A stretch of DNA of 60,253 nt from an uncultured Gammaproteobacteria bacterium (GCA_964533055.1 CAZHKZ010000001.1:48417-108669), one strand, 5' to 3'. Counted from the stretch's first letter, positions 7,186-60,253 are shown. The notes: a model not told the origin generated them from the sequence alone. A program made the numbers and translations.

Positions 7186-7189
7186 TATT

Positions 7190-16240: not shown

Positions 16241-16255
16241 AGGATCACATCAGAG

Positions 16256-20006: not shown

Positions 20007-20077
20007 TGCGGGATCGTCTAATGGTAGGACAACGGACTTTGGATCCGTTTACCATGGTTCGAGTCCATGTCCCGCAG
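20007..20077 (+). tRNA. tRNA-Gln (anticodon UUG)
   Basis: TGCGGGA acceptor (U1-A72), ACGGA-CTTTGGA-TCCGT anticodon arm, GGTTCGAGTCC T-arm, discriminator G. Confidence 0.88.
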
Positions 20078-42554: not shown

Positions 42555-43292
42555 ATGCGGATATTGGCTACCGTTCTCTTTTTTTCTCTTTCGTTCGTGC
42601 TCTTTACTTCATGTACAATTCTCATTCTTTCCTATCCTCGATTGACAGCTCAAATTGCAGTGAAAGGAATCTCAACTTTCCGTACTGCTGAAAATAAAAC
42701 ACAAAACAAAAAGTTAGGAGTAAGTTTTAAACAGTCCCTCTCTCCTACTCCGCGAATAGTTCAACCCACTCAGAAAGTAACTCTGGTCTCAACAGAAAAG
42801 ACATCTCCTACGTCGAGCGCACTTGTTCCAACAGATAAGCCAAGTCCAACACTAATCAAATCGGGGCAAACGATGTCTCCAACTCCAACGCTAGTTTTTA
42901 TTCAGTCAACACCAACAATAGTGCCGAAGAGAAGTGAAGTAGTCCAGACAGGTGGATTGTTTATAAGTCAAATAAATGCTTATAGAGCACAAAATGGACT
43001 TGGACCTGTCAGTGCAAATAGTGAAACCTGTACCTTTGCAGCAATAAGAGCACAGGAAATCGCAAGTGACTTTAGTCACAATGGGTTTACGAACAGAATT
43101 AATAGTAAGACTCTCCCCTATTCTTCATATCATGAGGTAACTGAAAATATCGCCATGAATTCTGATGCGTCACAAATTGTCACGATGTGGATCAATTCTC
43201 CAGGTCATGCTGAGAATATGCGCAAGGACACGCCGTATGTTTGTGTGGCACAGAGTGGAAATTACTTTGCGTATGAGGGATGGCACCCATAA
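42555..43292 (+). CDS. membrane-anchored CAP/SCP-domain protein
   Basis: N-terminal TM segment, S/T/P-rich linker and CAP domain (INAYRAQNGL...WINSPGHAENM). Confidence 0.8.
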   Translation: MRILATVLFFSLSFVLFTSCTILILSYPRLTAQIAVKGISTFRTAENKTQNKKLGVSFKQSLSPTPRIVQPTQKVTLVSTEKTSPTSSALVPTDKPSPTLIKSGQTMSPTPTLVFIQSTPTIVPKRSEVVQTGGLFISQINAYRAQNGLGPVSANSETCTFAAIRAQEIASDFSHNGFTNRINSKTLPYSSYHEVTENIAMNSDASQIVTMWINSPGHAENMRKDTPYVCVAQSGNYFAYEGWHP

Positions 43293-44464: not shown

Positions 44465-44588
44465 AAAAAAACCTCTCGCAATAGAGAGGTATTTCTTTGT
44501 CAAATTAATTTGACCACATAGTCTTTATATAGACTTGGCACCGATATGAATCCGGTTGCCGTTCCCAAAAATGGGACTCTCTGTATGC
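44465..44588 (-). promoter_or_regulatory. SAM riboswitch (SAM-I clan, reduced SAM-I/IV-like aptamer) plus terminator/SD-sequestering hairpin
   Basis: Minus strand GCAUA-CAGAGAG-UCCCAUUUUUGGGA-ACGGCAACC-GGAUUCAUAUCC..GGUGCCAA-...-UAUGU. It has the GCAACC and GGUGCCAA hallmarks and a P1 helix GCAUA/UAUGU, then CCUCUC-UAUUGC-GAGAGG-UUUUUUU-AUG. Located directly upstream of metK. Confidence 0.6.
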
Positions 44589-44637
44589 AAAATCTATTTA
44601 ATCAGGATACTTTGTAAAAAGCAAGTACTCTTTGAAT

Positions 44638-44704: not shown

Positions 44705-45619
44705 ATGACTATATCTATCATAATTGTTGCATACAATACTCGAGAGCTTGTCCGTGATTGCTTGGCTTCTCTGAAGAAAGCCGAGGCTTCTCTGAAGAAG
44801 GCAGGATACAGCATGCAGGTGATTGTTTCTGATAATGGGTCTGATGATACAGGAGAGATGGTGAAGAAGGAATTCTCATCAGTGCTGTACCAAAAAAATG
44901 AAAATGTGGGATTTGCTAAAGGCAATAATATTGTTAAAGATCTTTGCAAGGGCACATTTATCCTGATGCTCAATCCTGATACTCGGGTTGAAGATGACAC
45001 TCTTCCAGAATCACTGCGCTATATGGAGTCACACCCAGATGTTGGTGCGATGACTTGTAAGATAGAGATGTCTGATGGAAGTTTAGACAAGGATGCAAGG
45101 CGATCGTTTCCAACCCCATGGGTGGCGTTTACTCATATAACAAAGCTGGATCGGCTCTTCCCTACCTCAAGGCTCTTTGCAAGATATTGGTATGGTTATC
45201 TGCCTGAGGATAAAGAGTCGGAGGTCGATGTTCTTGAAGGCGCGTACTGTCTCGTGAGACGAAGTACGCTTGACGAGATCGGATGGTATGACGAAGACTA
45301 CTTCCTCAACGGCGAAGACATCGATCTTTGTTGGAAGATAAAAGAGACCGGGAAAAAGATCATATATTATCCAGATGTTAAGATCTATCATTTTAAGGGT
45401 GCAACAAAAGGTAAATCTCAAAATAAAGCAGGTGCTATTAAAGTGGACAAGGCTACAAAGAGAAAAGTAATAGTGGCTGGAAGCGATGCAATGAAGATTT
45501 TTTACAATAAAAGGCTGAAAAATAAGTATTCTCCTCTAACGACAGGACTTATTCTTTCTGGAATCTTCGTCATGAAGCAAATTCGCCTTGCACGATTTAA
45601 TTTCCTCAATAAAGTCTAA
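44705..45619 (+). CDS. glycosyltransferase family 2 (rhamnosyltransferase-like)
   Basis: IIIVAYNTRELV N-terminus, DNGSDD and NGEDIDLCWK. Contains an in-frame 21-nt tandem duplication (ASLKKAE/ASLKKAG, 44765-44806). Confidence 0.88.
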   Translation: MTISIIIVAYNTRELVRDCLASLKKAEASLKKAGYSMQVIVSDNGSDDTGEMVKKEFSSVLYQKNENVGFAKGNNIVKDLCKGTFILMLNPDTRVEDDTLPESLRYMESHPDVGAMTCKIEMSDGSLDKDARRSFPTPWVAFTHITKLDRLFPTSRLFARYWYGYLPEDKESEVDVLEGAYCLVRRSTLDEIGWYDEDYFLNGEDIDLCWKIKETGKKIIYYPDVKIYHFKGATKGKSQNKAGAIKVDKATKRKVIVAGSDAMKIFYNKRLKNKYSPLTTGLILSGIFVMKQIRLARFNFLNKV

Positions 45620-45622
45620 ATT

Positions 45623-46159
45623 ATGATCAACTTCCAAGATTCATTTAGTTTTTGCTATCGCTGTGGTTCTGCGCTTATAAAGCGAAATGACGATAGCTTT
45701 ATTTGCACTTCGTGTTCTCATGTTACTTATCCTAGTCCTTCAGCCTGTAATGCTGTCTTTCTTGAGAATGACAACGGAGAGATTTTATTGGTTGAGCGTG
45801 GTCGGGAGCCAAGAAAGGGCACATGGGATGCTGCGGGTGGTTTTATCAAGCCATTTGAAGATTACAAAATATCAGTTCGACGTGAGATCAAAGAAGAGCT
45901 TTCGATTGAGATTGATCAGATTAAGATTTTTGGTTCATATCCAGATCATTATGTGTACCAGGGCATCGATGTAGCGACAATTTCAATATTTAGTACAGCC
46001 AAGATTGTGTCAAAAGACATTAAGGCTGGCGATGATGTATCAGGATACTCTTTTTTTACACCTGATCAGGCTCTGGAGCTAGATCTTTCATTCCCTTCAA
46101 TTAAAGTCGCACTTCAAGACTATATACTCTTCAAAAAGAATATGCCTGAGTTTGAATAG
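45623..46159 (+). CDS. NUDIX hydrolase with an N-terminal zinc ribbon (NudC-like)
   Basis: CYRCGS...CTSCSH ribbon. Nudix box GGFIKPFEDYKISVRREIKEEL. Confidence 0.8.
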   Translation: MINFQDSFSFCYRCGSALIKRNDDSFICTSCSHVTYPSPSACNAVFLENDNGEILLVERGREPRKGTWDAAGGFIKPFEDYKISVRREIKEELSIEIDQIKIFGSYPDHYVYQGIDVATISIFSTAKIVSKDIKAGDDVSGYSFFTPDQALELDLSFPSIKVALQDYILFKKNMPEFE

Positions 46160-46186
46160 TCTTACCATAGCGTGTAGAATAGCTCT

Positions 46187-46537
46187 ATGAAGGGACATCT
46201 CAGAACTGCAGAAGCACTCGCCTCACTCCTAGATACAAAGTTCAAGATCTTTGGGATTACATTTGGACTGGATCCACTCTTGGATCTTGTACCTTGGCTT
46301 GGAGATGTGGTCGGATTGGTTCTCTCCTCCTATTTAATTTGGATAGGCTTTACGATGCGTATTCCTCGTGAGGAATTGGTGCGCATGGTCATAAATGTCG
46401 TAATCGATTTTTTGATTGGCCTTGTACCATTCCTTGGATTTGTAGGAGATATTTTTTATAAAGCCAACATTCGTAATATTAAGATTTTGAAAAAATATGA
46501 TGAGAAGAAAATTATTGAGGGTGAAATTGTTGGTTGA
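46187..46537 (+). CDS. DUF4112-like membrane protein
   Basis: LDTKFKIFGITFGLDPLLDLVPWLGDVVG motif. TAGAAT lies 6 nt before the ATG. Confidence 0.7.
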   Translation: MKGHLRTAEALASLLDTKFKIFGITFGLDPLLDLVPWLGDVVGLVLSSYLIWIGFTMRIPREELVRMVINVVIDFLIGLVPFLGFVGDIFYKANIRNIKILKKYDEKKIIEGEIVG

Positions 46538-46583
46538 TTTGTAGCCTTCCCCTTTCAACAATTGCTATAATATACTTTGTATC

Positions 46584-47786
46584 ATGGTAATTGGATTTTT
46601 TACAGATGGATATTTCCCCCAACTTAATGGTGTGGCCACTTCCGTTGATGGATGTGCAAAGGCCTTAGAGGCTTTAGGACACACTGTTTATATCATTGCC
46701 CCAAGCTATCCTAATACGAAAGATACATCCCCACATATTATGCGAATTGCCTCTGTAAAGTATCCAGAGAATCCAGAGATACGTATAGCGACGTATCTAC
46801 CAGGCAAATCAATTGTTTTAGCTTCTAAAATTAATTTTGATATTATTCATGGCCACACTGGCGGTCCACTTACCATGCTTGGATTTGAAGTTGCTAAGTT
46901 CAAGCGAGTACCTTTTGTCGTAACATATCACACGCTTTGGAATCAGTATATGCACTATGTAATGAAAGGGAAAATAATTACCCCTAAAATGACAGAAATC
47001 GCTAGCAGAATTTTTGGGAATAGGTGTGACACTGTTATAGTTCCAACAAAGAAGGTCAGAATGGAGTTGCTTTCATATGGTATCGCAAAGCCGATTAGAA
47101 CAATCTCAAATGGGCTTGATCTCAATCGTTTTAGGAATGGTTCCCCCACTTTTCTGCGTGAGAAATATAAGGTCAAACCCTCAACAAAAATTATTCTCTT
47201 TGTTGGAAGGCTCGGTAAAGAAAAATCAATTACGTATCTTCTTGATGCATATAAGGAAATCCTGCGAAAGATTCCTGATAGTATTTTTATGATTGTTGGA
47301 AATGGTACTGAGGAAAAAGCACTTAAAGATTATGCCGCAGATCTAGGTCTCACAAAGAACGTACTTTTTACTGGTGGAGTGTTATTTAAAGATATGCCAT
47401 CGATTTATAGAGGTGCTGATATCTTTGTTTTTGCATCAAAGACTGAGACGCAGGGTGTTGTTGTACTTGAAGCTATGGCATCTGGTGTACCTGTAGTGAC
47501 AGTAAAGGATGATGCGTATGGTGAGATATTTAAAGAAGGTAAAGGTGGAGTAATGGTATCTGGCGATGCTACTGAATTCGCTGCTGAGGTTGTTTCACTT
47601 TTATCTGATGCAAAAAAAAGAAAAGAGATGATTGATGAATCTCAAAAAATAGTTGAAGAGCATTCAATTCTAGCTACAGCAAAAGAGTTGGAGAGTCTTT
47701 ATACTGCACTTATCGCAAAGAATAAAAAGAAAGGATCAATCTCCAAAAGAATCTCTGGATATTTTTCGCGGGCTATTAGTAAATGA
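46584..47786 (+). CDS. GT4 glycosyltransferase, diacylglycerol glucosyltransferase-like
   Basis: MVIGFFTDGYFPQLNGVATSV N-terminus (alMGS-like). ETQGVVVLEAMASGVPVV. Confidence 0.85.
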   Translation: MVIGFFTDGYFPQLNGVATSVDGCAKALEALGHTVYIIAPSYPNTKDTSPHIMRIASVKYPENPEIRIATYLPGKSIVLASKINFDIIHGHTGGPLTMLGFEVAKFKRVPFVVTYHTLWNQYMHYVMKGKIITPKMTEIASRIFGNRCDTVIVPTKKVRMELLSYGIAKPIRTISNGLDLNRFRNGSPTFLREKYKVKPSTKIILFVGRLGKEKSITYLLDAYKEILRKIPDSIFMIVGNGTEEKALKDYAADLGLTKNVLFTGGVLFKDMPSIYRGADIFVFASKTETQGVVVLEAMASGVPVVTVKDDAYGEIFKEGKGGVMVSGDATEFAAEVVSLLSDAKKRKEMIDESQKIVEEHSILATAKELESLYTALIAKNKKKGSISKRISGYFSRAISK

Positions 47787-48919
47787 AGTACGACATTGTT
47801 ATTGTTGGGGCAGGGATTTCGGGAGCTACTTTGGCTGAACGATTTGCAAATAAGCTCAATAAGAAAGTTCTTGTTCTTGAGAAAAGAGAGCATATTGGTG
47901 GTAACTGCTACGATCACATTGATGAGGCAGGTATTCTAGTCTCAAAATATGCTGCACATATTTTTCATACCTCATATGAAGATGTCTGGCAGTATGTAAA
48001 TAAATTCTCCCGCTGGCATCCATATTTTCATAAAGTTCTGAGCATGGTTGATGGTAAGTTGGTTCCCATTCCTGTAAACATCACGACTGTTAATACTCTT
48101 TTTAATCTTTCACTTAAAAATGAAGAGGAGATGAAGGCTTGGTTAGCAGAGCAAGTTGTAAAGATAGATCATCCTAAAAATGGAGAAGAGTCAGCGCTCT
48201 CCCGTGTTGGACCTATACTTTACGAAAAAATGTTTAAGAACTATACGACAAAGCAGTGGGACACTGACCCCAAAAATTTAGACAAGTCTATTCTTGATCG
48301 CATTCCAGTTCGTTTTGATTTTAACGATCAGTATTTTAGCGATCCACATCAGGCTATGCCTACCGATGGATATACAAGAATTTTTGAGAACATGCTCAAT
48401 AATCCAAATATCACTGTAATGCTTAACACTGATTATTTCTCAATTCAAAAAGACATCGAGGATTATGAGCAGCTCTTCTTTACAGGTCCTATCGACCAAT
48501 TCTTTGGTTACAAATTAGGCAAGAAATTGCAGTATCGCTCACTTCGTTTTGAGTTTGAGACGCTTGATAAGGAATATTTCCAATCAAATTCTGTGATTAA
48601 CTATCCAAATGAAAATGACTTTACAAGAATCGTAGAGTTCAAATATCTCACAGGACAACAGCATGCGAAGACCACGATTGTACGTGAATATCCAACCTGG
48701 GAGGGAGAGCCTTACTATCCAGTTATTAATCCCGAGAATTTAGCCCTATTTGATGAATATGCGAAGGAAGCAAATAAATCAGAGACTGGGAAAGTCCATT
48801 TTGTTGGAAGACTGGCTAACTATAAATACTTTAATATGGATCAGGCTTTTAAGAATTCTTTAGATCTCTTCTATCGCCTAAATCCAACAGTTACTGTAGA
48901 ATATATGCAGAATGAGTAA
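47783..48919 (+). CDS. glf: UDP-galactopyranose mutase
   Basis: YDIVIVGAGISGATLAERFA...GGNCYD FAD-binding N-terminus. Length and C-terminal NYKYFNMDQ typical of UGM. ATGA overlap with the upstream gene. Confidence 0.92.
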   Translation: MKYDIVIVGAGISGATLAERFANKLNKKVLVLEKREHIGGNCYDHIDEAGILVSKYAAHIFHTSYEDVWQYVNKFSRWHPYFHKVLSMVDGKLVPIPVNITTVNTLFNLSLKNEEEMKAWLAEQVVKIDHPKNGEESALSRVGPILYEKMFKNYTTKQWDTDPKNLDKSILDRIPVRFDFNDQYFSDPHQAMPTDGYTRIFENMLNNPNITVMLNTDYFSIQKDIEDYEQLFFTGPIDQFFGYKLGKKLQYRSLRFEFETLDKEYFQSNSVINYPNENDFTRIVEFKYLTGQQHAKTTIVREYPTWEGEPYYPVINPENLALFDEYAKEANKSETGKVHFVGRLANYKYFNMDQAFKNSLDLFYRLNPTVTVEYMQNE

Positions 48920-49622
48920 AAAGGTACGTATTTCTGTCGTCATTGCTGCCTATAATGAGGCAAAATATATTAAAACAGTCCTCACAGCGCTTGCCTCCCA
49001 GACTATCAAAGACTTCGAACTTATTGTTGTTGATAATAATTCAAGCGATGCTACATCGAGTATTGCCCGACAGTTGGGCGCTAAAGTGTTTTTGGAGAAA
49101 AAGCAGGGCTACGTCTTTGCTGTTGAGAGAGGGCTCAGGGAGGCTACAGGCGACATCCTTGCTGTTACTGACTCAGACACGTCCCCAGATCGTGATTGGC
49201 TCGAGAAAATACTCCATGCATTTGAAGATAAGAGTGTTGTTGCCGTGACTGGATCAGTAAAATATAAAGACGCAGGATTCTGGGGTAATTTGCTCACATA
49301 TCCGATCTATACTCTTTTTCTGTGGGCTAATTTTTTTGTGGGTAAGCCCCACATGACAGGGACTAGTTTGGCGATGCGAAAAGAAGTGTATCTTAAAGCG
49401 GGTGGACTGGATACGAGATATAAGATAAGCGCAGACGTTGAGATAGGACTCAGGCTTAAAAAATATGGTAAGGTGGTATTCCTGCCAACACTCTCGGTTG
49501 TGGCATCATCGCGTCGATGGAGTACTCAAAAAAGTAATAACTTTCTTAAATACACAAAAGCCTATTTTGAGACTGTTTGGTTTGGTAAGCCACCGCTTGA
49601 AGATCTAAAACCGGTTCGATAA
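48912..49622 (+). CDS. GT2 glycosyltransferase (paralogue 1)
   Basis: ISVVIAAYNEAKYI, VDNNSSD, DSD. Colinear paralogue of the next gene. Confidence 0.88.
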   Translation: MSKKVRISVVIAAYNEAKYIKTVLTALASQTIKDFELIVVDNNSSDATSSIARQLGAKVFLEKKQGYVFAVERGLREATGDILAVTDSDTSPDRDWLEKILHAFEDKSVVAVTGSVKYKDAGFWGNLLTYPIYTLFLWANFFVGKPHMTGTSLAMRKEVYLKAGGLDTRYKISADVEIGLRLKKYGKVVFLPTLSVVASSRRWSTQKSNNFLKYTKAYFETVWFGKPPLEDLKPVR

Positions 49623-49623
49623 T

Positions 49624-50334
49624 ATGCAATACGATCCTCATATCACAGTAGTCATTCCCGCATATAATGAAGAGAAGAACCTTCCCCATGCACTTGAAAG
49701 TCTTTCAAAGCAAACATATAAAAATTTTGATGTGATCGTAGCTGATAATAATTCTACGGACTCGACTCCTCAAATAATTAAGGAACATAAGGCACAACGA
49801 GTACTTGTCACCCAAAAAGGATATGTTTTTGCGCTGGATAGTGGTATGCGCCAGGCAAGTGGAGAAATTATCTCAGTTACAGATGCTGATACAAGAGTAA
49901 GTAGTGATTGGTTGGAAGAAATTGCTAGAGTATTCTCAGATAGCCAAGTAGTGGGATTAACCGGCTCTATTGCAATTCAGGATAAAAGCCTCTTTAGTAA
50001 ATTGCTGGACCTCCTTTATGGAGGTTTTCTTTTGATTCACTTTAGCATTGGTAAGCCACATCTGATTGGTTTTAATTTTGCAGTGAGAAAAGAGGCATTT
50101 TTGAAAGCAGGAGGACTTGATAAGAAATATACCATGAGTCCTGATGTGGATCTTGGTCTAAGACTTAAAAAGTACGGTAAATTAGTCTTTGCTAAGAAGG
50201 TAAAGATTGTACCGTCGATGAGGCGATGGGAGGATAGCGCATCAAAAGCTTTTATTGAATATGCGAAGGGGTACTTTTATGCTCTTTGGTTTCGTAAACC
50301 ACCCCCAGTTACCCAGACAATAATAAGAGACTAA
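49624..50334 (+). CDS. GT2 glycosyltransferase (paralogue 2)
   Basis: ITVVIPAYNEEKNL, ADNNSTD, DAD. Same length (236 aa) as paralogue 1. Confidence 0.88.
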   Translation: MQYDPHITVVIPAYNEEKNLPHALESLSKQTYKNFDVIVADNNSTDSTPQIIKEHKAQRVLVTQKGYVFALDSGMRQASGEIISVTDADTRVSSDWLEEIARVFSDSQVVGLTGSIAIQDKSLFSKLLDLLYGGFLLIHFSIGKPHLIGFNFAVRKEAFLKAGGLDKKYTMSPDVDLGLRLKKYGKLVFAKKVKIVPSMRRWEDSASKAFIEYAKGYFYALWFRKPPPVTQTIIRD

Positions 50335-50956: not shown

Positions 50957-51580
50957 ATGGATAATTTATCACAAGCACACAAAAGATCTCGTTCACTCCC
51001 CTCTTTCCGTGTCCTAAAAAATAAATACAAAGGATCGCTATATATCCCTTTTGCTCTTGTCGGACTTATCGTTTTAGTTATCGTAGGATTCTCACTACGA
51101 AACGTATATTCAGCAAAGTCACCTACATCAAGCGCTGCTGGGCAAGTGTCACTTGAGAAAGCGAAAAAAACTGAGGATCTCAACAAGACATTCGCATTCT
51201 CATTGAGAGATCAAACTGGAAAAGAAGTAAGTAAAGTTAAGTATCTTCTAAAATCTGCTGAGATAAGAGATGAGATCTTAGTTAAAGGACAGAAGGCGTA
51301 TGCAGTAGAGGGAAGAACATTCCTTATCCTTAATATAAAGATTACAAATAGCTATGAAAAGCCTGTCCAGATCAACGCAAGAGACTATATAAGAATGACT
51401 GTTAATAACAATCCAGAAAAGATAGCTCCAGAAATTCATAGTGATCCAGCTGAGGTACAAGCTATTTCCACAAAAGAGACACGAGTTGGTTTTGCAATTA
51501 ACAAAACAGACAAGAACCTTGTTCTTCAAATTGGAGAAGTTAAAGGAAGTAAAGAAACAATTAAGCTCCATATACAATAA
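50957..51580 (+). CDS. membrane-anchored DUF4352-like (Ig-fold) protein
   Basis: N-terminal TM segment after a basic stretch. RTFLILNIKITNSYEKPVQINARDYIRM resembles the DUF4352 core. Start trimmed to the ATG at 50957. Confidence 0.7.
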   Translation: MDNLSQAHKRSRSLPSFRVLKNKYKGSLYIPFALVGLIVLVIVGFSLRNVYSAKSPTSSAAGQVSLEKAKKTEDLNKTFAFSLRDQTGKEVSKVKYLLKSAEIRDEILVKGQKAYAVEGRTFLILNIKITNSYEKPVQINARDYIRMTVNNNPEKIAPEIHSDPAEVQAISTKETRVGFAINKTDKNLVLQIGEVKGSKETIKLHIQ

Positions 51581-51588: not shown

Positions 51589-51783
51589 ATGAATGATTAT
51601 TCGACCAAGAAGGTGAATGCATTATTAATGGAAGAGATCTCAGAAGCGCTTGCAAATATCAGGGGTTGGGGTAGCGTTGAGATCTATGTTCAGGATTTTA
51701 AAGTTGTTCAGATTACAGAGAGAAATATCAAAAAAACTCCATCAAATATTTCTCATTCACAAACTGTGAAAATTGGGTCTTGA
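51589..51783 (+). CDS. YezD/DUF2292-family small protein
   Basis: WGSVEIYVQDFKVVQITE motif. Confidence 0.7.
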   Translation: MNDYSTKKVNALLMEEISEALANIRGWGSVEIYVQDFKVVQITERNIKKTPSNISHSQTVKIGS

Positions 51784-51809
51784 CAACAGATTTTCACATC
51801 GACTATAGT
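51780..51809 (+). promoter_or_regulatory. sigma70-type promoter of the repeat-protein operon leader
   Basis: TTGACA-18 nt-TATAGT. Confidence 0.6.
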
Positions 51810-51815
51810 TTGCTT

Positions 51816-51987
51816 AGTTAACAGGGTTAACAACTTAAATAAATAGAAATTGCTGACCGTACACGGAAGCACCCACATTTTTTGTGAGGTGCTTTTTTTA
51901 TTAGAAAAATGACAAATACTAACAACAAATACAAAACGATGATCCCATGCTCTTCTCTTTAGAGGTGAACGTGGGATTTTCGTTTTT
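51816..51987 (+). promoter_or_regulatory. structured leader with two successive terminator-like hairpins and a 17-codon Thr/Asn-rich uORF
   Basis: GTTAAC-AGG-GTTAAC hairpin. GCACCCAC...GTGAGGTGC plus T7 (51869-51899). uORF ATG 51909..TAG 51962 (MTNTNNKYKTMIPCSSL), whose 3' end enters the ATCCCA...TGGGAT hairpin plus TTTTCGTTTTT (51942-51987). Confidence 0.45.
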
Positions 51988-52076
51988 ATCTAACCTTCAG
52001 GTGTAGATAAGGGCGGAAAGAAGTGCTCAAGCTTAAAAAACTTGAGATTATCGTCGAGAGAGGGGGTGATTTAATT

Positions 52077-53324
52077 ATGACAAACTATAAAACAAGAATT
52101 ACAACAGCTATTGCAACCGGATCAGTCTTACTCCAAGCATTAGCAGGTATAACACACGCTTCAACAATTGAAATCTCTGGAAACGGAGCAGGTTCAAACA
52201 ATGGAGTTGCTGTTAACCAGGTAAGTACAACTCAGGTGTCTCAAACAAACACAGCTAACGTTAGTAATAACGTTAATTCTTCTGCTAATACAGGAGGAAA
52301 TGATGCTAACTTCAACACAGGTGGTAACGTAACAGTTAACACAGGTGCAGCTAACGTCAGTGCTAATGTTTCAAACAATCTTAACTCTAACGCAGCTAGT
52401 GTAAACTGCTGTGCAAATAATGGAGGTACGAATGTTGAAGTTTCTGGAAACGGAGCTTTTTCAGACAACCAAGTTGGAGTTAACCAAACACACACAACAG
52501 CTGTATCTCAAGGCAATGCTGCTAACGTTAACAATAACGTTAATGGTAAAGCTAACACAGGCTACAACGATGCTGGTTTTAACACCGGTGGAGATGTAAC
52601 TGTTAGTACAGGAAAAGCATCAGTTCATTCTGATGTTTCTACTCAAGCTAACACTAACTGGGCACACGTTGGCTCAGATATGCCTATGGTAGGTACAGGT
52701 AATGACGTCAGTCTTAAGATCGTTGGAAACGGCGCAGGTAGTGAAAACACAATTGGAGCTACTCTCGCTAACACAACAGCTCTTACTCAGTCAAATGAAG
52801 CAAACGTTAATAACAATGTAGATGCGAAAGCAAATTCAGGTAAGAACGATGCTAACTTTAACACTGGAGGAGATGTTGTTATCCACACAGGAAACGCTGA
52901 AATTACAACAGACGTTGATAACGCTGTAAATTTCAACGCAGCTGATGTTGATTGCGGTTGTGCGTATGACCTCACAGCAAAGATTGCAGGAAATGGTGCA
53001 GCAGCTGGATATCAAAGTTCAGATGCTAACACAATTGCTGCTAATTTGATCAGTGCTCAGTCACTTGGTCAGGGTAACGGTTCAAACTTGAACAATAACC
53101 TTAATGATGAGGCAAAAACTGGAAAGAATGAGGCTAGTAAGAACACAGGTGAGGCTAATACCGATCCATCAGTTGTTACTGGAAATGCTTCTTCCCACAC
53201 ATCAGTAGACAATACAGGCAACACCAATATCATTGGTAGCCTTCCAGTTCTTCCAAATCTTCCTAATTTCGATTTCGATTTTAATTGGGCAGGATTCTGG
53301 GGATTCTGGGGTATGTCACTTTAA
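52077..53324 (+). CDS. secreted Asn/Gly/Thr-rich repeat protein A (4 GNGA...NTGG modules, aromatic C-terminal tail)
   Basis: SD GAGGGGGTGAT before the ATG at 52077. Signal peptide ...LAGITHA. Four ~90-aa modules. C-terminus FDFDFNWAGFWGFWGMSL. Confidence 0.85.
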   Translation: MTNYKTRITTAIATGSVLLQALAGITHASTIEISGNGAGSNNGVAVNQVSTTQVSQTNTANVSNNVNSSANTGGNDANFNTGGNVTVNTGAANVSANVSNNLNSNAASVNCCANNGGTNVEVSGNGAFSDNQVGVNQTHTTAVSQGNAANVNNNVNGKANTGYNDAGFNTGGDVTVSTGKASVHSDVSTQANTNWAHVGSDMPMVGTGNDVSLKIVGNGAGSENTIGATLANTTALTQSNEANVNNNVDAKANSGKNDANFNTGGDVVIHTGNAEITTDVDNAVNFNAADVDCGCAYDLTAKIAGNGAAAGYQSSDANTIAANLISAQSLGQGNGSNLNNNLNDEAKTGKNEASKNTGEANTDPSVVTGNASSHTSVDNTGNTNIIGSLPVLPNLPNFDFDFNWAGFWGFWGMSL

Positions 53325-53390
53325 TGTAGATCTTGAATGTAGGGAGACTTTACTAGCACTTCAGTAGAGTCCCCTACAGACAAGAATAAA

Positions 53391-53438
53391 CAGGAAACAG
53401 GAAACAGGAAACAGGAAATAAAATAAAATAAAATAAAA
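53391..53438 (+). repeat. two adjacent microsatellites, (CAGGAAA)x4 then (TAAAA)x4, ending in the A of the start codon
   Basis: Read directly: CAGGAAACAGGAAACAGGAAACAGGAAATAAAATAAAATAAAATAAAATG. Confidence 0.9.
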
Positions 53439-55573
53439 TGAAAAAACAATTACTTGCACTACTTACAATATTTTCGCTAACAATAGCGCCTATCTCCCCT
53501 GTTTTTGCAGAGGAGGTATCAGCTCCTATCCCAGTTGTACAAAATAATCTTCCCTCAGCTCCTACACCTCCAACACTACCATCAGAGCCAACTCCTCCTG
53601 TAGATAATGTTAGCGCTCCTACACCTCCAGCAGGTCCAGTTCTTCAGGATGCTCCTATACCAACAATTATTTTAAGTCCACAACAGCAAGCAGAAGCTAA
53701 GAAGAAAGCGGAAGATGAGGCTGCTGCTGCCGCTCTTGTTAATGCTGGTGCGGGAAGTGGCAATGTTGGCACAACTGCAATTAACACAGGTGATGCATCA
53801 AATAACTCTGGCATTAACAATTCAGGTAACAATAATATTTCTACGACTTCTCCATGCTGTGTAGAGGGGTCTGCAACAGTAGTAAATGATGGTAACGGAG
53901 CTAATTCTAATAATAATAGTTCTGCAACTACCACAAATAACAATAGTACGGGTCAAGCAAATAGTGCAGTCCTAGCAAACAACATGGATAGTGCTACTGT
54001 TACGGGCACTAATGACACTTCGTTTAATGTTGGTGATTCTAGTATCAATACGGGTGATGCTAATACTACTGGAACAATTGTAAATACCATTAACTCAAAT
54101 ACTGCAGGAGTTACTATGTCAGAGTTCAATATTGTAGATGATCACATCGGTGATTATGTTCTCGACTTTGGTGCCAACTGTGTCCAGGGTTGTAATGGAT
54201 CAAGTGTTGGTAACACTGGTAACGGTGCTAACTCCAATAACAACGCATCAAATAGTACGACTAACAACAATTCAACAGATCAAACAAACAGTGCTGAGCT
54301 TGCAAACAACATGACTCTTGGTGCTAACTCCGGAAGTAACAATGCAAATTTCAATACAGGTGGGGATTCAAATATCACAACTGGAAATGCAAATGTTGCA
54401 GCGAATATTCTCAACTTTGTGAACAACAATCTCGCAGGAAATGTCATTATCGGAGTTGTAAATATCTTTGGCAATCTCGTTGGTGACATCATCCTTCCTG
54501 ATCATCCAGAAGGTTCTCTTGCTAACTGCACAAGTTGTGGAAGTAATGGTAGTGCAGTTAATTCTGGCAACGGAGCTGGTTCTAACAACAATGCATCTAA
54601 CAACTCAACCAATAATAATAGTTCTAATCAGGCAAATAATGCAGTCATTGATAATAATCTTAATTTTGATGCTAATACTGGTAATAATAATGCAGGCTTT
54701 AACACAGGCGGAGATTCTTCAGTTACAACTGGTTCGACAGAAGTTAATGCAGGCGTTCTCACAATTGCCAACAATAATATCAATGGTGGCGACTGGTGGC
54801 TCGTTATCGTTAATAGAGCAGGCCAGTGGATTGGGAAGATCGTAGGTTCTCCAGATGGCGCTACTATGGCGGGTTCTGAAGGCACAGAATTTGTGATGGA
54901 TGAAAATGGTAATGTGCTAGCAGTTAACTCGAATAATGGGGCTAACACAGATAACAATGCGTCAAATAGCACAACAAACAATAATTCTACCAACCAGTCA
55001 AATGACGCACACATCACTAACAACGTAAATCTATCTGCGAATACTGGTAATAATGATACAAAGTTCAATACAGGTGGGGATTCAAATATCACAACTGGAG
55101 ATGCAAAGATCATCGCAAATATCATCAACTTTGTTAACAATAATGTGACAGGTAATGGTAAGCTTGTCGTCACCTTCGTCAATGTGTTTGGTTCATGGGT
55201 TGGAGACTTTGTAGCACCAGGTCAAGCTAAACAGACACACGCTATCTCAAACTCAAATCAGCAGCAAAGTAACTCACAACAGAATACGTCTACAACTCAA
55301 AATTCAGGAGGTTCAACAGCAGTAAAGGCTGGTTCCTCAACCCAAACTGATACATTGACACAGAAAAATAACTCTGGTAATCTGATCGCAGGAGCAATTC
55401 AGAGCGCTAAAACTGTTGAAACTCTTGTAAAGGGTGTTCACACTAACGACTCATCCATCCAGTCAGGTTCGTCAGCAATCAAGCTCAATCTCGCATGGCT
55501 TGTGATGATTGTTCCACTTATCGGTCTTATACTTATATTCAGAAAAATTCGCTCAAGTATGAGAACAATCTAA
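53438..55573 (+). CDS. secreted repeat protein B (Pro-rich stalk, 4 extended modules, C-terminal TM anchor)
   Basis: Signal peptide ...SPVFA. Modules each start GNGANSNNN...NNNST.Q.N.A...ANTGNN.A.FNTGGDS..TTG.A. C-terminal LAWLVMIVPLIGLILIFRKIR. Confidence 0.88.
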   Translation: MKKQLLALLTIFSLTIAPISPVFAEEVSAPIPVVQNNLPSAPTPPTLPSEPTPPVDNVSAPTPPAGPVLQDAPIPTIILSPQQQAEAKKKAEDEAAAAALVNAGAGSGNVGTTAINTGDASNNSGINNSGNNNISTTSPCCVEGSATVVNDGNGANSNNNSSATTTNNNSTGQANSAVLANNMDSATVTGTNDTSFNVGDSSINTGDANTTGTIVNTINSNTAGVTMSEFNIVDDHIGDYVLDFGANCVQGCNGSSVGNTGNGANSNNNASNSTTNNNSTDQTNSAELANNMTLGANSGSNNANFNTGGDSNITTGNANVAANILNFVNNNLAGNVIIGVVNIFGNLVGDIILPDHPEGSLANCTSCGSNGSAVNSGNGAGSNNNASNNSTNNNSSNQANNAVIDNNLNFDANTGNNNAGFNTGGDSSVTTGSTEVNAGVLTIANNNINGGDWWLVIVNRAGQWIGKIVGSPDGATMAGSEGTEFVMDENGNVLAVNSNNGANTDNNASNSTTNNNSTNQSNDAHITNNVNLSANTGNNDTKFNTGGDSNITTGDAKIIANIINFVNNNVTGNGKLVVTFVNVFGSWVGDFVAPGQAKQTHAISNSNQQQSNSQQNTSTTQNSGGSTAVKAGSSTQTDTLTQKNNSGNLIAGAIQSAKTVETLVKGVHTNDSSIQSGSSAIKLNLAWLVMIVPLIGLILIFRKIRSSMRTI

Positions 55574-55583
55574 AGGTCGCTTT

Positions 55584-55630
55584 CTGTCCACAAAGTACCT
55601 CTGTCCAATATCTGCTGCCCGCTCTGTCCA
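55584..55630 (+). promoter_or_regulatory. three direct copies of CTGTCCA upstream of repeat protein C (candidate regulator sites)
   Basis: Copies at 55584, 55601 and 55624. The last two share CTCTGTCCA. Confidence 0.35.
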
Positions 55631-55643
55631 CCAATATAAAGTT

Positions 55644-56756
55644 ATGTTACACAAAAATATTATTATTACGTTAGTCTCTGTTGCTATTTTGCCAATTGCC
55701 ACTCATGTTGCTTATGCGGAAGAGTTCGTTATAACTGGCAATGGAGCAGGGTCATCCAATACTGTTGAAGTTTCTAGTGCAACTTCTAATAACGTGTCTC
55801 AGTCAAATGATGCAGCAGTTACAAACAATCTCACAACAACTTCCAATACTGGAAATAATCAGGCAAATAGTAATTCCGGTAATGTAGCAGTTCAGACAGG
55901 AAATACTCAGACAGCAACTGAAGTTGCAAATAACCTTAATAATTCTGTCGTTGACTCGACGACTTGCTGCAATACTGCAGGTGGTTCTATCACCGTTTCA
56001 GGAAATGGTGCAGACAGTACAACTTCAGTTGGATATACGTCTTCAACAAATAATGTAACTAATGTTCACCAGACTGCGACAATTAATAACGTTATCACTG
56101 GAACAGCAAACACTGGCGGCAATAAGGCGAATAATAATCTAGGAAATGTAAATATCTTTACAGGCAATATCAAGGTAAATGAAAAGGTAAAAACAAATGT
56201 AAATGAATCAATTGTAAAAGTGGCAACCGGCGGAACTAATGTATTTGATATTAAAGTAGCTGGAAATGGAGCTGGAAGCATCAATCTAATTTCGCTTACG
56301 AATAACTCTGAAAATGTCGTAAATGTTGAAAATAATGCAGATATTTTCAATCAGAGTGTCTGGAATCTTATTACTGGAAATAATGAAGCAAATGGCAATA
56401 ATGGTGATGTTACTATTAAGACAGGAGACATAGAAGTTACTGTATCTATTGAAAATAATGCAAATCATAGTGAAGTAATTGTTGACTGCGGCTGCACGCC
56501 AACCCCTCCCCCACCCCCTGCATGCACTGGTGATCACTGTAATCCAAATCCTCCATCAAATAATGGTGGCGGCGGTTCAAATGGTGGTGGAAGTAGTTCT
56601 GGTGGCTCATCAAGCCCATCAAATACACCTGCGAAAAATGTACTTCCTGTTACAGGCACACCTTGGATGATCCTTTTACTGCTTGGAAATGTATTGCTAC
56701 TCCTCTTTGGTATGGTGTTAAGACTGAGATCCGGTAATTCGCCATCAAGAGCGTAG
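55644..56756 (+). CDS. LPXTG-anchored repeat protein C (3 modules)
   Basis: Signal peptide ...THVAYA. Three modules. C-terminal sorting signal LPVTG + hydrophobic helix + RLRSGNSPSRA. Confidence 0.9.
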   Translation: MLHKNIIITLVSVAILPIATHVAYAEEFVITGNGAGSSNTVEVSSATSNNVSQSNDAAVTNNLTTTSNTGNNQANSNSGNVAVQTGNTQTATEVANNLNNSVVDSTTCCNTAGGSITVSGNGADSTTSVGYTSSTNNVTNVHQTATINNVITGTANTGGNKANNNLGNVNIFTGNIKVNEKVKTNVNESIVKVATGGTNVFDIKVAGNGAGSINLISLTNNSENVVNVENNADIFNQSVWNLITGNNEANGNNGDVTIKTGDIEVTVSIENNANHSEVIVDCGCTPTPPPPPACTGDHCNPNPPSNNGGGGSNGGGSSSGGSSSPSNTPAKNVLPVTGTPWMILLLLGNVLLLLFGMVLRLRSGNSPSRA

Positions 56757-56773
56757 TCGGGATATATCTTAAA

Positions 56774-56798
56774 AGACAGGTGCGAGCCTGTCTTTTTT
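56774..56798 (+). terminator. intrinsic terminator between protein C and the sortase gene
   Basis: AGACAGG-TGCGAG-CCTGTCT followed by TTTTT. Confidence 0.8.
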
Positions 56799-56831
56799 GC
56801 ATTTATAAATCTGAGACGCTACAATACCCAC

Positions 56832-57395
56832 ATGAAAAAACCACCAATATATTATTTAGGAACTTCGCTTATTATCATCTCATTAATGATCTTTGCCTAT
56901 ATTTTCTATCCTCTTGTTAGAGCATATTATTTTCCACCAAGTCTTACTGATTTTAAGAGGGCTGAGTATACGCTCATAATTCCAAAGATTCATGCGATTG
57001 GTAGAGTTATTGAGGATGTCGATCCATGGAATGAGTCGGTCTATAGGGATCTTTTGAAAATAGGTATTGGGCAAGCAAAAGGATTTGCTCACCCAGATGA
57101 ATCAGGGCCAGTATTTCTCTTTGCTCACTCCAGTGGTACTCCATGGGAGATCACGCATTATAATACCGTTTTTCTGAGACTTGCAGAGCTTAAAAAAAAT
57201 GATGATGTTCAGATCTGGTATAAAGGAAAAGAATACCACTATACCGTGATGCGGACTCAGGAGGTCTACCCTACTGAGGTAAATGTCGTGCGAGATGAAA
57301 AAGAGGCTGATCTTATACTTCAAACATGTACACCACTTGGAACTGATTGGAAGAGACTTTTAGTATTCGCGAAGAAGATCAAAGCTAAGGAATAA
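56832..57395 (+). CDS. sortase (transpeptidase)
   Basis: N-terminal TM segment, LFAHS His, LILQTCTP (TLxTC) Cys, downstream Arg (WKRLLVFA). TACAAT lies 6 nt before the ATG. Confidence 0.88.
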   Translation: MKKPPIYYLGTSLIIISLMIFAYIFYPLVRAYYFPPSLTDFKRAEYTLIIPKIHAIGRVIEDVDPWNESVYRDLLKIGIGQAKGFAHPDESGPVFLFAHSSGTPWEITHYNTVFLRLAELKKNDDVQIWYKGKEYHYTVMRTQEVYPTEVNVVRDEKEADLILQTCTPLGTDWKRLLVFAKKIKAKE

Positions 57396-57546
57396 TATAC
57401 CACTGAAGACTGTAGACGAGCACCAGAACAACGATTGCTAGAACGAGAAGTGAAAGGTACCCAACCATATTATGAACAGGAGCATGGAGCTGTTTGTGGA
57501 CTCTCTGAACTTTTCCTGTACTTGATGATTTCTTGCGGGCAGCCAT
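57385..57546 (-). CDS. candidate 53-aa single-TM micro-protein (below ORF-track cutoff)
   Basis: My translation gives MAARKKSSSTGKVQRVHKQLHAPVHNMVGYLSLLVLAIVVLVLVYSLQWYIIP. Preceded on the minus strand by TTGACA-17 nt-CAATAT-6 nt-ATG (57553-57581). Its 3' end overlaps the sortase gene by 11 nt. Confidence 0.5.
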   Translation of the reverse strand: MAARKKSSSTGKVQRVHKQLHAPVHNMVGYLSLLVLAIVVLVLVYSLQWYIIP

Positions 57547-57606
57547 ATATCTATATTGGACGGTTCAATCAGGTGTGTCAATAGGAAAAAAAGAAGAACA
57601 GATATT

Positions 57607-58056
57607 TTAGAAGAGTTTTAAGATCGACTCTACTAAGGTTACAATCATTGAAATAGGAGTAAGCGGTATCTTCGTCGCCTGTGGCTTACTCACATTATGA
57701 TCTTCGGGGGTGGGAGATGTTTTGGAGCTTGGTGATCCTGTTGGAGATGGAGTAACCGTTCCACTCGCGCCAGCTGAGTGAGATTCTGAGCCCGATTGAA
57801 CGCTTGTGCCACTTCCATCAATCTTAACGCTGGACTTACCATCTTCAGACCTCCAATCAACTGATTCATTGCCACTAGTATTGAATTCCTTGATTACTCC
57901 ATCTGTCTCAATGCGTACGTGGGATTCGCTCGTGGTAGAAGATTCTCCGTTCGAACTGGTATTACTGTTAATGGTGACTGAGGATGTGCTGGCGTAAGTA
58001 ACTTTGGCCATAGTAAGGAGAAGTAAGGCTAGTAATGAAAGATGGGCATATCTCAT
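57607..58056 (-). CDS. secreted Ser/Thr-rich protein E (149 aa) with a hydrophobic C-terminus
   Basis: Signal peptide ...KVTYA. S/T/G-rich body. TTGATT-16 nt-TACAAT promoter 9 nt before the ATG. Confidence 0.7.
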   Translation of the reverse strand: MRYAHLSLLALLLLTMAKVTYASTSSVTINSNTSSNGESSTTSESHVRIETDGVIKEFNTSGNESVDWRSEDGKSSVKIDGSGTSVQSGSESHSAGASGTVTPSPTGSPSSKTSPTPEDHNVSKPQATKIPLTPISMIVTLVESILKLF

Positions 58057-58099
58057 AACCTACTGATTGTACAACTTTGAAGATAAAAATCAAGTCCAA

Positions 58100-58139
58100 C
58101 AAAAACCCTGCTTGGATGCTTAAGTCATCCTCACAGGGT
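58100..58139 (-). terminator. compound hairpin terminator after repeat protein D
   Basis: Minus strand ACCCTG..GGATG-ACTTAA-GCATCC..CAGGGT followed by TTTTTG. Confidence 0.65.
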
Positions 58140-58167
58140 CTTGTCTAATCTATAGATTTAGTACTCT

Positions 58168-58761
58168 TTAAAGAGTATTTGTACCACCACCAACAACTAC
58201 TGTAGTAGTTGAGGTTGTATCTCCAGTTGTAGTAGTGCCACCACCACCTACATTGAATCCGGACATATTCATGCCAGTGTTCTGAGCTGTTCCGACACTA
58301 GTCATCACAGTTTGATTGTTAGTCTGTGTGACTTTTGTCTTGGAAAGATTCATAACACTTACACCGTTCCATGAGAGTGCTCCATTACCATGGATTGATA
58401 CATCAGTGTTACCTGATTGACAGCCACATGAAGGTACAGTAGCAGTATTACTGCCACCACTTACTCCCACAGATACAGTTGAAGTTGTATTACCAGTATT
58501 AATGGTACTACCACCTCCAACATTGTATCCAGATGAGTTACCACCTGTATTTTGTTGAGTTGATACATTTGTAACTACAGTAGAGTTGTTTGATTGAGAC
58601 ACCTTTGTTTTTGATGCACTCACTACGGAAACGCCATTTTGTGAAAGCGCACCGTTATTTTTGATAGTTACAGTTGTAGCAGCAAATGCTGGTGCAGCAG
58701 CTCCTGCTAATACAGTTGCTGTGATCATACCAGTCGCTAATTTTGTTTTTAAGTTTGTCAT
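58168..58761 (-). CDS. secreted repeat protein D (2 modules)
   Basis: AGGAGGTG lies 6 nt before the ATG at 58761 (the ORF-track GTG at 58770 is rejected). Signal peptide MTNLKTK...APAFA, like that of protein A. Two modules joined by a CGC motif. Confidence 0.85.
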   Translation of the reverse strand: MTNLKTKLATGMITATVLAGAAAPAFAATTVTIKNNGALSQNGVSVVSASKTKVSQSNNSTVVTNVSTQQNTGGNSSGYNVGGGSTINTGNTTSTVSVGVSGGSNTATVPSCGCQSGNTDVSIHGNGALSWNGVSVMNLSKTKVTQTNNQTVMTSVGTAQNTGMNMSGFNVGGGGTTTTGDTTSTTTVVVGGGTNTL

Positions 58762-58814
58762 ATATTTCACCTCCTTTCCACACGGTCTACGATCCGGTGA
58801 ACGCTAGTTCTTTA

Positions 58815-60253
58815 CTAGAGTTCGCAAGAGTTCTTAGACTCTGCTACACAGGTGTCGCTACCAGCTCCACCATTTGTTACATCAGATCCCCCTTCTCCAT
58901 AGAGCTTGTCAGCTCCACCGTCTCCTGAGAGTAGGTCTGATCCATTTCCACCCCAGATCTGATCAGCATCAGCGCCACCGACTAGATAGTCGCTGCCGTT
59001 ATTGCCGTAGATCTTATCCATTCCCGCTTCACCGTTGATTGAATCACTAGAGTTGCCTCCAACGATTACGTCATCTCCAGCTCCACCGAGAACGACACTG
59101 CTTCCGTTACCTGGGACAATACAGTCGTCCCCACCTTTGCCATCGATGAAGTCACTTCCGTTACCTCCAAAGATCAGGTCATTTCCACTTGTACCATTGA
59201 GAGTTTCACTCTTGTTAGTACCGTTAATGACATTTGTGAATGTCATACCTGTACAAGCGAGCGGTAAGTTCGCAATTGGTGTAGGTGTAATAACTGTTGG
59301 TGTCGGAGTCACAGGAGCATCAGCAATCACTGTGATGTGATGTGGGTTTCCTGTTCCATTACTCCATGCAGACTCTGTTCCAAGACTATCCTTTGCCATC
59401 ACCCTAACATAATATTCTCCAGGTGGTGTTCCTGGGGTAGGGATATTGGAGTTTGAAAGTGTAAATCCACTATCAAACACAAGACTTGTGTAAGCAGCGT
59501 CAGAGAATGCTTCATATCTATACTGATATGAGCCATCTCCTCCTGTTGCATCAGACCAGTCAACCATTGTCGCTGCACTTGTCTGAACTACTGCGTTGTG
59601 GGCAGGAGTTAAGATTGTAGGTGCATTTACTGGAGTTGGTGTTAATGACTTAAGTGATAGATTGTCAATTAAGAATCCGTTTCCAGCAGTTGCAGGGGAA
59701 GCTGTTCCACTTGCTCGGAAGAGAATTGAATCTACTGTCCTAGTATTATTCAGTTCTTGTTCTCTAAAGTAATCTTCCCAACTGTCTCCCGTGTGTTTAA
59801 GAACTCCATCAACATAAACTTTGACAATATCATTTCCTGGTCCATCAACGAATTGCATCGTAACTTTTATGTTATGAGTCAAAGTTCTATCTAATCCTGT
59901 TGCAATGTTTGTATAGACAAAGCCAACTCCATTCCCAGTATTTGGAGCTCCAGATTGATAGTCATAGAAATTTATATCAATCCCAGTGGGAGTGTCTTTC
60001 ATTTGTATCCAGCTCATTCTTGCTCCGTCGCCTCTGGCTGGACTTGCTGTTATTGCAAGACCTGGCTGTTCAGCACTCGGAGAAGTTGATTTGAAATCCC
60101 ACGAAGCTTCGAAGAAACTTTGGCGGGCTCCTCCAGATAAGCCTGCATTTTCTGCAGTTGTCTCACCAGCCTCATTTGTTAGAGATTTAGAAAATGTTTG
60201 AGCTCCAAAACTTCCACTGGTCACAGCATTTGAAATTCTAAAGGACTGAGAGC
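58815..60253 (-). CDS. secreted protein F: jelly-roll/LamG-like domain + Ig/Fn3-like domain + ~12 RTX-type GGxGxD repeats (N-terminus outside window)
   Basis: The reading frame stays open to the window end. C-terminal GGNGSDFIDGKGGDD...GGNGSDLLSGDGGADKLYGEGGSD nonapeptide repeats. Confidence 0.85.
   Translation of the reverse strand, partial: SQSFRISNAVTSGSFGAQTFSKSLTNEAGETTAENAGLSGGARQSFFEASWDFKSTSPSAEQPGLAITASPARGDGARMSWIQMKDTPTGIDINFYDYQSGAPNTGNGVGFVYTNIATGLDRTLTHNIKVTMQFVDGPGNDIVKVYVDGVLKHTGDSWEDYFREQELNNTRTVDSILFRASGTASPATAGNGFLIDNLSLKSLTPTPVNAPTILTPAHNAVVQTSAATMVDWSDATGGDGSYQYRYEAFSDAAYTSLVFDSGFTLSNSNIPTPGTPPGEYYVRVMAKDSLGTESAWSNGTGNPHHITVIADAPVTPTPTVITPTPIANLPLACTGMTFTNVINGTNKSETLNGTSGNDLIFGGNGSDFIDGKGGDDCIVPGNGSSVVLGGAGDDVIVGGNSSDSINGEAGMDKIYGNNGSDYLVGGADADQIWGGNGSDLLSGDGGADKLYGEGGSDVTNGGAGSDTCVAESKNSCEL

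Follow-up and report, generated by a model that had tools for sequence, protein, structure and literature searches.

We analysed a 60,253-nucleotide stretch of DNA (hereafter the window; GCA_964533055.1 CAZHKZ010000001.1:48417-108669) deposited under the title of an uncultured Gammaproteobacteria bacterium, and describe here a gene cluster at its downstream end in which four predicted secreted proteins, A to D, share one module of about 88 residues and are encoded together with a sortase. On the plus strand the cluster comprises UP225 (50957-51580, alternative TTG start at 50903), a 64-residue DUF2292 protein (51589-51783; Pfam DUF2292, 3.6e-7), a structured intergenic leader (51784-52076), A (52077-53324; 415 residues), B (53438-55573; 711 residues), C (55644-56756; 370 residues) and the sortase (56832-57395), and between the last two lies a terminator-like hairpin recognized by consensus match only (56771-56796). 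The minus strand carries a 53-residue micro-protein with a single transmembrane (TM) helix (57385-57546), whose gene shares 11 nt with the 3' end of the sortase gene, followed by E (57607-58056; 149 residues), D (58168-58761; 197 residues) and F (58815-60253), which is cut by the window end. All of the open reading frames (ORFs) named in a preliminary description of this DNA were present, and the cluster that it had placed at 51780-60253 is real, but its left edge was set too far downstream: UP225 and the DUF2292 gene belong to the cluster, which therefore starts about 800 bases upstream of 51780.

The four paralogues contain 13 full copies of the Asn/Gly/Thr-rich module, four in A, four in B, three in C and two in D, a total that agrees with the one first counted; a family hidden Markov model (HMM), which gave per-domain E-values of 1e-14 to 1e-31 on these copies, revealed a half module in B in addition (residues ~107-142) and no other module in the window. 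The 13 modules could be aligned nearly gap-free, with pairwise identities of 20-63%, and the proteins consist of 12-19% Asn, with Gly, Thr and Ser also plentiful. Close cysteine pairs (CC, CGC, CxxC or CxxxC) were found at 7 of the 10 module junctions, in line with the earlier remark that most junctions carry one, and one more follows module 3 of C. Such pairs include the CC after module 1 and the CGC after module 3 of A and the CGC that joins the two modules of D; family-wide, the cysteines of A, B, C and D proteins are almost exclusively paired, as CC, CxC, CxxC or CxxxC. The longest paralogue, B, has further elements: a Pro-rich spacer after its signal peptide (identified by eye), an extra hydrophobic hairpin in each of its four full modules, and a Ser/Thr/Gln-rich linker between the modules and the TM anchor.

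The module had been regarded as unassignable to any named family, and database searches bore this out. A-D gave chance-level matches at most against Pfam, NCBIfam and PHROGs; A, B and D contained no Pfam domain, and the two Pfam matches in C both fell far below their cut-offs. Scanning 72 diverse family members singly against Pfam yielded no recurrent weak match at E up to 1. Against PDB sequences, A had a single chance match (E 0.47) and a profile of the 13 modules had none. This PDB set includes CsgA and FapC, to whose entries there is no profile similarity, consistent with the original impression that the repeats resemble these proteins in style and not in sequence. No module relatives were found in the viral contigs scanned, and a literature search found no description of the family. 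A module profile search, in turn, recovered 3,088 clusters (50% identity) at E <= 1e-3, which carry 2 to 10 modules and of which one is labelled Parcubacteria. A itself has at least 851 homologues; the best 120 listed are full-length proteins that have neither annotation nor a Pfam domain, and the few source-given names among the A homologues are Levybacteria and Patescibacteria. On the basis of these profile searches, the module is a new domain family and not a described one.

To place the cluster, relatives were sought in one genome per species, and an A relative was found in 122 genomes; the synteny counts given here refer to the best 80 loci from these species-representative genomes. Gene order in the 80 loci was near-invariant, with UP225, DUF2292, A, B, C and the sortase followed by D in convergent orientation. 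UP225 lay upstream of A in 80 of 80 loci and DUF2292 between the two in 75. The A-type gene had four modules in every locus. B was the second module gene in nearly all sufficiently long loci, and the B relatives have 4-5 modules and about 730 residues; C relatives mostly have three modules (one in some clades), and D relatives usually have two, with some 40 loci in which D and the sortase gene converge. The association of module and sortase seen in the window also extends to other genomes, as a sortase stood alongside module paralogues in essentially every related genome examined. Extra sortases occurred in few loci only, and the window has a single sortase gene. Modules at the same position in different genomes were 51.6% identical, compared with 39.6% for different positions within one genome, and all 13 diagonal identity values exceeded their off-diagonal values. 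The fixed module number and this position-wise orthology argue for an assembly with a set design and against a stalk whose length varies.

Where loci carry a lineage name, they belong to Levy-, Roizman-, Gottesman-, Woese-, Ames-, Chisholm- or Daviesbacteria or to unspecified Microgenomates or Patescibacteria. Among the 122 genomes as a whole, too, every organism name given falls within the Microgenomates group or unspecified Patescibacteria, and the remaining titles are generic ("uncultured Gammaproteobacteria", "bacterium"), the former being borne by many records. Judged by gene content, the "uncultured Gammaproteobacteria bacterium" titles, which come from third-party records of metagenome-assembled genomes, look like placeholders. 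By its distribution among sequenced genomes, the cluster is an envelope-gene core conserved across Microgenomates-group bacteria of the Candidate Phyla Radiation (CPR), and the source of the window is probably a relative of Levybacteria.

Signal-peptide-like N-termini were recognized in all four paralogues by eye, and on this ground A-D are taken to be Sec-exported. The paralogues differ only in their mode of surface retention, and each of the C-terminal fates first proposed for them was recovered: an aromatic tail in A, a TM helix in B, a sorting signal in C and none in D, which lacks any C-terminal tail or anchor. C combines a signal peptide (again by eye), three modules and a Pro/Gly-rich linker with the C-terminal sequence LPVTG-TPWMILLLLGNVLLLLFGMVL-RLRSGNSPSRA, in which a hydrophobic segment is followed by the basic tail LRLRSGNSP, so that all parts of a cell-wall sorting signal (signal peptide, LPXTG motif, hydrophobic segment and positive tail) are in place. 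It is the sole carrier of LPxTG among A-D, as the motif is missing from A, B and D. In the related loci, 34 of 40 proteins encoded directly upstream of a sortase have LPxTG; C orthologues most often have LPATG (15) or LPVTG (8), among other variants, and continue with hydrophobic residues and a conserved basic end of the type YLRLRSGRSP. From these sequence features, C is a predicted sortase substrate that bears a cell-wall sorting signal.

The gene after C does encode a sortase, as had been claimed (Pfam Sortase, PF04203, 6.9e-19). The protein has an N-terminal TM helix and the catalytic residues His99, Cys166 (within LQTC) and Arg175 of the sortase family, and it scored 47.3 bits with the generic sortase model TIGR01076 (cut-off 39.35). 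None of the class cut-offs was reached with the NCBIfam models for classes A-F, the best sub-threshold match being class C. B orthologues share a C-terminus made up of a conserved (I/L)NLAW motif, a TM helix and basic residues. In these C-termini (55480-55573 in the window; also in loci L002, L009, L035 and L039) the helix often contains P-L-x-G/A, and L009 has an exact LPLTG; this motif is probably a proline kink in the helix or, less likely, a degenerate sorting signal. The tail of A is conserved, acidic/aromatic and amphipathic, with a consensus of approximately P-E-M-P-x-V-D-F-S-F-N-F-A-A-x-W-A-F-F-G-M, and is too polar for a membrane helix; it is not a membrane anchor.

The strong Shine-Dalgarno (SD) sequences that had been noticed before A and D turned out to be the two strongest in the window. 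Among 49 window ORFs, pairing with the anti-SD sequence was most stable for D (-12.9 kcal/mol) and A (-12.4 kcal/mol), with a median of -0.6 kcal/mol. A strong SD was kept in 100% of A relatives (80/80) and 95% of D relatives (37 loci); it was rare in B (6%), C (9%) and sortase genes (11%), with UP225 falling within the same 6-11%. This asymmetry fits abundant A and D subunits and low-copy B, C and sortase, and it suggests that A is probably the major subunit and D a second abundant one. The leader of A holds two terminator-like hairpins, the first directly behind DUF2292 and the second, which runs into a stretch of U, at about 51935-51990, and then the strong SD GAGGGGGTGA. Its minimum free energy had a z-score of -3.95 against shuffled sequences, and an Rfam search of the leader gave only a sub-threshold chance match to a miRNA. 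The gap before A is intergenic in the relatives as well (median 257 nt in 75 loci), and a hairpin with a U-run was found in 58 of these 75. The leader might act as an attenuator or represent a small RNA. The leaderless-type promoter that had been proposed for the sortase gene comes down to a consensus match: the candidate TTTGCA-18-TACAAT (56796-56825), which ends 6 nt before the ATG, matches only 9 of 12 consensus positions, and promoter-like sites of this kind are no more frequent in the region than in shuffles (30 found, 26.3 expected).

Profile autocorrelation of the A family gave one peak at 89-93 residues, a higher one at 182 residues (z 7.8), and only a weak short internal period (17 residues, z 1.5). 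The stronger 182-residue peak suggests that A stems from duplication of a two-module, D-like unit with its Cys pair. At the DNA level the repeats between modules are only 60-75% identical, which argues against recent gene conversion. N-glycosylation sequons (NxS/T) showed no consistent enrichment: they were not enriched in A, C or D, with A and C slightly depleted, and were about 2 standard deviations above expectation in B.

AlphaFold2 returned all-beta models for A (44-sequence alignment; predicted local distance difference test, pLDDT, 46; predicted template modelling score, pTM, 0.31) and for D (68 sequences; pLDDT 54, pTM 0.33), and a Foldseek search of both models against the PDB found nothing below E = 1. 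FapC and CsgA were the top Foldseek rows and, at E > 1 and TM-scores below 0.12, were not taken as evidence. Given the low confidence of the three-dimensional models, we did not use them and instead performed mean-field direct-coupling analysis (DCA) on 1,497 unique modules from the loci and proteins fetched (effective number 1,269; 88 columns). The main ladder of couplings was antiparallel, with i+j of about 107-110, and ran from 25/82 to 50/58 with z up to 11: it defines a long hairpin whose arms have about 25 residues each and whose tip is the NTGG turn (53-56). Another ladder (4/17, 6/17, 4/19) marks a short hairpin around GNGA (8-11), and positions 9-15, in the GNGA region, are coupled to 48-58 as well. 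This set contained no ladder of constant offset, the sign of a parallel solenoid. The couplings were reproduced in both random halves of the alignment, in which 14-15 of the top 30 pairs recurred, as opposed to 5 after column shuffling.

About 18 positions are at least 90% conserved over the 1,497 modules. In both arms of the long hairpin, alternate positions are conserved as Ala, Val, Ile, Asn or Gln and those between them are variable and polar, an alternation that makes the hairpin amphipathic; the conserved face changes side at T45-G46 and T62-G63. Weaker couplings (65/78, 31/37 and 29/65) hint that the long hairpin is folded back on itself. A coarse C-alpha restraint model of the hairpin shape was dropped, as random contact sets satisfied 81-88% of restraints compared with 95% for the real set. 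Together, these data show that the module is a folded antiparallel beta unit, one face of which must be buried on another module or subunit. The beta-solenoid or cross-beta architecture put forward in the preliminary description was not borne out, given antiparallel hairpin ladders, the missing constant-offset ladder, the weak short period and the low-confidence AlphaFold models. Between modules, DCA of A orthologues (222 four-module proteins) placed 93 inter-module pairs in the top 100, of which 84 joined the same position in two modules. These were identity pairs (F-F, D-D, K-K) and included modules 1-3 and 2-4; they could stem from conversion in the distant past, from a binding partner common to the modules or from in-register packing.

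With slightly better than even confidence, we propose that low-copy B and C anchor abundant, co-assembling A and D in a surface layer or fibre, in a manner reminiscent of the chaplins. After export, B would be retained in the membrane through its C-terminal helix, and C would be cut by the sortase at LPVT/G and joined to peptidoglycan. A and D, produced in excess, would use the conserved face of their modules to bind each other as well as the B and C modules, and disulfides between the paired junction cysteines would brace the assembly. An MdbA-like oxidoreductase family, often encoded beside VKOR, is enriched in CPR bacteria (PMC6744442). What results would be a layer or fibre on the cell surface, with a defined geometry and a role in envelope integrity or in attachment to other cells. 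The surface structure that had been suspected here gains support, and the amyloid or solenoid character attached to it does not. Several points weigh against our proposal. The AlphaFold models of A and D are of low confidence, and hence the fold is derived from covariation; several secondary DCA contacts involve near-invariant residues, so that the long hairpin may be either straight or folded back; and the strongest inter-module couplings may reflect concerted evolution and not contact. In addition, D is absent from some loci or lies beyond their sequenced flank. Interaction and co-assembly of A-D, the disulfides, the choice between layer and fibre and the biological role are all inferred from sequence.

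Other explanations of the cluster differ mainly in how, or whether, the four proteins would come together. They might be independent surface proteins, adhesins or stalks with their own anchors and no co-assembly, in which the module serves as a spacer or a binding domain of beta-sandwich type. The commonest design of Gram-positive surface adhesins combines tandem beta domains with an LPXTG or TM anchor, and the variable polar face of the module is what would be expected of an exposed, fast-evolving surface. Cultivated Patescibacteria are reported to be episymbionts of other microbes and to require attachment factors (PMC11623550). We nevertheless consider independence unlikely: it is the unanchored A and D that hold the strongest translation signals, module number is fixed over 80 loci, which is unlike stalk proteins, and proteins that are encoded in so compact and unvarying an operon, with three modes of anchoring, look like components of a single structure. 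Rather improbable, in our view, is a functional amyloid or cross-beta fibre with A as major and D as nucleator-like minor subunit, in which hairpins would stack edge to edge with their Ala/Val/Asn faces zipped together and B and C would act as tethers. A long amphipathic hairpin with a small-residue/Asn face would suit a dry interface, the pairing of major and minor paralogues and the Asn/Gly/Ala-rich composition are curli- and Fap-like in style, and in-register stacking would predict coupling of the same position between modules. The couplings observed, however, extend to D-D and K-K pairs and to modules that are not neighbours, a pattern that concerted evolution fits better; the profile searches found no similarity to PDB chains, CsgA and FapC included, and no Pfam match to Curlin_rpt or Chaplin; the repeat is 88 residues long with a weak short-period signal; and fixed module number with position-specific orthology is more typical of a folded multidomain protein.

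A sortase-polymerized pilus, with the module proteins covalently joined into a shaft in the style of class C systems, would account for a sortase inside a cluster of structural genes, and class C is the best sub-threshold match of the enzyme. That match scored 49.9 bits, far under the cut-off of 160, the window holds one sortase gene and few loci have an extra one, and the model fails because C alone has LPxTG; we regard it as very improbable. Finally, an Asn content of 18% and the low AlphaFold confidence might suggest disordered, low-complexity Asn/Thr-rich secreted proteins, an idea that is barely credible in view of the replicated antiparallel covariation (z up to 11), the roughly 18 highly conserved positions and the orthology of module positions across genomes.

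Nearly all Microgenomates have the sortase family, and most protein families enriched in these bacteria lack annotation (PMC6744442). We found no named sortase substrate of Microgenomates in the literature searched, and the cluster offers a concrete, conserved candidate in C, together with its three paralogues. The assembly that we propose, of abundant A and D anchored by B and C, predicts that A and D are abundant, that B and C are anchors, that disulfides form at the junctions and that the module is antiparallel and amphipathic. A-D also supply antigens and sequences with which the envelope structure of an uncultured lineage could be located by metaproteomics or cryo-electron tomography, and the module family, with its approximately 3,000 clusters, is missing from the domain databases searched. 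It is conceivable, though doubtful, that A-D make up the principal outer structure of Microgenomates, either a coat or sheath that resembles an S-layer or a cross-beta ribbon of antiparallel type, held by three anchors, braced by disulfides (vicinal and CxC) and of a fold without solved relative. If so, this structure could mediate the contact of these ultra-small bacteria with other cells.

The remaining genes of the cluster are less uniform. UP225 would be held in the membrane by its N-terminal TM helix, with a beta domain resembling DUF4352 on the outside of the cell; weak DUF4352 matches were found in 10 of 27 family members (best E 4.1e-5), and its profile had zero matches in the PDB. E is Ser/Thr-rich and secreted, and was found in the same position only in loci L043 and L056, with a weaker match elsewhere in L073; by this distribution it is a narrow-lineage-specific protein. 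Homologues of the micro-protein were likewise confined to L043 and L056 among the 80 loci. The identification of F as an RTX protein stood, with HemolysinCabind matching six stretches at 5.2e-27 and tandem GGxGxD nonapeptides present, but its ORF, called as 58815-60224, is incomplete at the window edge, as the frame is open to position 60251. A search for more of the contig past F found only a 2.4-kb duplicate contig on record.

In the flanks, envelope-glycan genes lie right upstream of the cluster (44705-50334, plus strand): a glycosyltransferase of family 2 (GT2), a NUDIX protein, a family 4 glycosyltransferase (GT4), UDP-galactopyranose mutase (Glf) and a second GT2, and also a further ORF (49624-50334, plus) that is GT2-like by sequence appearance. 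In the Levybacteria locus L001 the flanking genes are for peptidoglycan instead: Mur ligase, EPSP_synthase-family (MurA-like), GlmU-like and GlmS-like genes are found upstream, and MraY-like and FtsW-family genes downstream. Downstream of D, many loci carry an RTX gene, a lamin-tail-domain protein, a SipW-like signal peptidase and one or two TasA/Peptidase_M73 proteins (L001 at 15504-19113, the same region as L006; L017, L019, L027, L039, L050, L056, L065 and others), which amount to another set of fibre-type genes directly adjoining the sortase cluster. The Peptidase_M73 match in these neighbours reached 1.8e-15; SipW and TasA genes are absent from the window itself. A 355-residue lamin-tail-domain protein is encoded in the window at 39353-40420 (minus), and such proteins also occur near SipW/TasA in related loci. 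Elsewhere, the window contains a CAP/cysteine-rich secretory family protein (42555-43292, plus) and a SAM-I/IV riboswitch match (44483-44593, minus; 41.3 bits, Rfam gathering score 41.1). The latter extends into the 5' end of the S-adenosylmethionine synthetase gene as given by its longest ORF call (43355-44503, minus), and an ATG at 44464 would put the riboswitch directly upstream of that gene. Seven tRNA genes lie in 6110-13123, four of them within 11676-12402, and an eighth at 20007-20077. GC skew shifts from about -0.04 to +0.18 near 22 kb (approximately 22000-26000), which could be gene strand bias or a replication landmark.

Among described systems, the closest in logic are the chaplins of Streptomyces, in which the long, sortase-anchored ChpA-C tether a layer of short, free ChpD-H and conserved Cys pairs matter (PMC5618241). 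A-D share with them a one-domain paralogue family, a sortase signal on some members, unanchored bulk members and Cys pairs. They differ in that the module is 88 residues long and occurs two to four times per protein, where chaplins have about 40-55 residues, in the extra membrane-anchored member B, and in their CPR host, which is not a filamentous actinomycete; the Chaplin domain (PF03777) gave no match at E up to 1 in A-D or in the 72 family members. C resembles Gram-positive LPXTG proteins in its signal peptide, LPVTG, hydrophobic stretch and basic tail and in the adjoining His/Cys/Arg sortase. Unlike in housekeeping-type LPXTG systems, this sortase falls outside classes A-F, the passenger family is new and three non-LPXTG paralogues stand alongside. 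A class C pilus sortase system was rejected on the low class C score and the restriction of LPxTG to C.

Curli (CsgA/CsgB) and Fap (FapC/FapB) likewise pair a major with a minor paralogue and have imperfect repeats rich in Asn, Gly and Ala. The curli repeat has a length of about 20 residues, compared with 88 here; A-D were not classed with CsgA/CsgB, having no Pfam or PDB profile match, a period of 89-93 and 182 residues, and antiparallel ladders, and no CsgG/FapF-type outer-membrane secretion genes were seen, although no systematic search for them was made. The TasA/TapA/SipW fibres of Bacillus and the archaeal AbpA fibres are comparable in that SipW/TasA genes neighbour D in many related loci; A-D have no Peptidase_M73 match and are not TasA/camelysin fibres themselves, and the SipW/TasA genes represent a neighbouring system that possibly cooperates with them. 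TasA homologues have already been reported in Patescibacteria (PMC9245690), a finding that concerns these neighbouring genes. Gram-positive S-layer proteins were set aside too, as Pfam found no SLH/CWB2-type wall-binding domain in A-D. The G5-E stalks of SasG and Aap are likewise elongated, beta-rich repeat proteins anchored by sortase, but their repeat number varies between strains where that of the modules is fixed, and no Pfam match to G5 was found in A-D or the 72 family members. Judged from sequence and by analogy, what appears new here is the domain family within a conserved envelope cluster, and the logic of its anchoring resembles that of known sortase-tethered assemblies.

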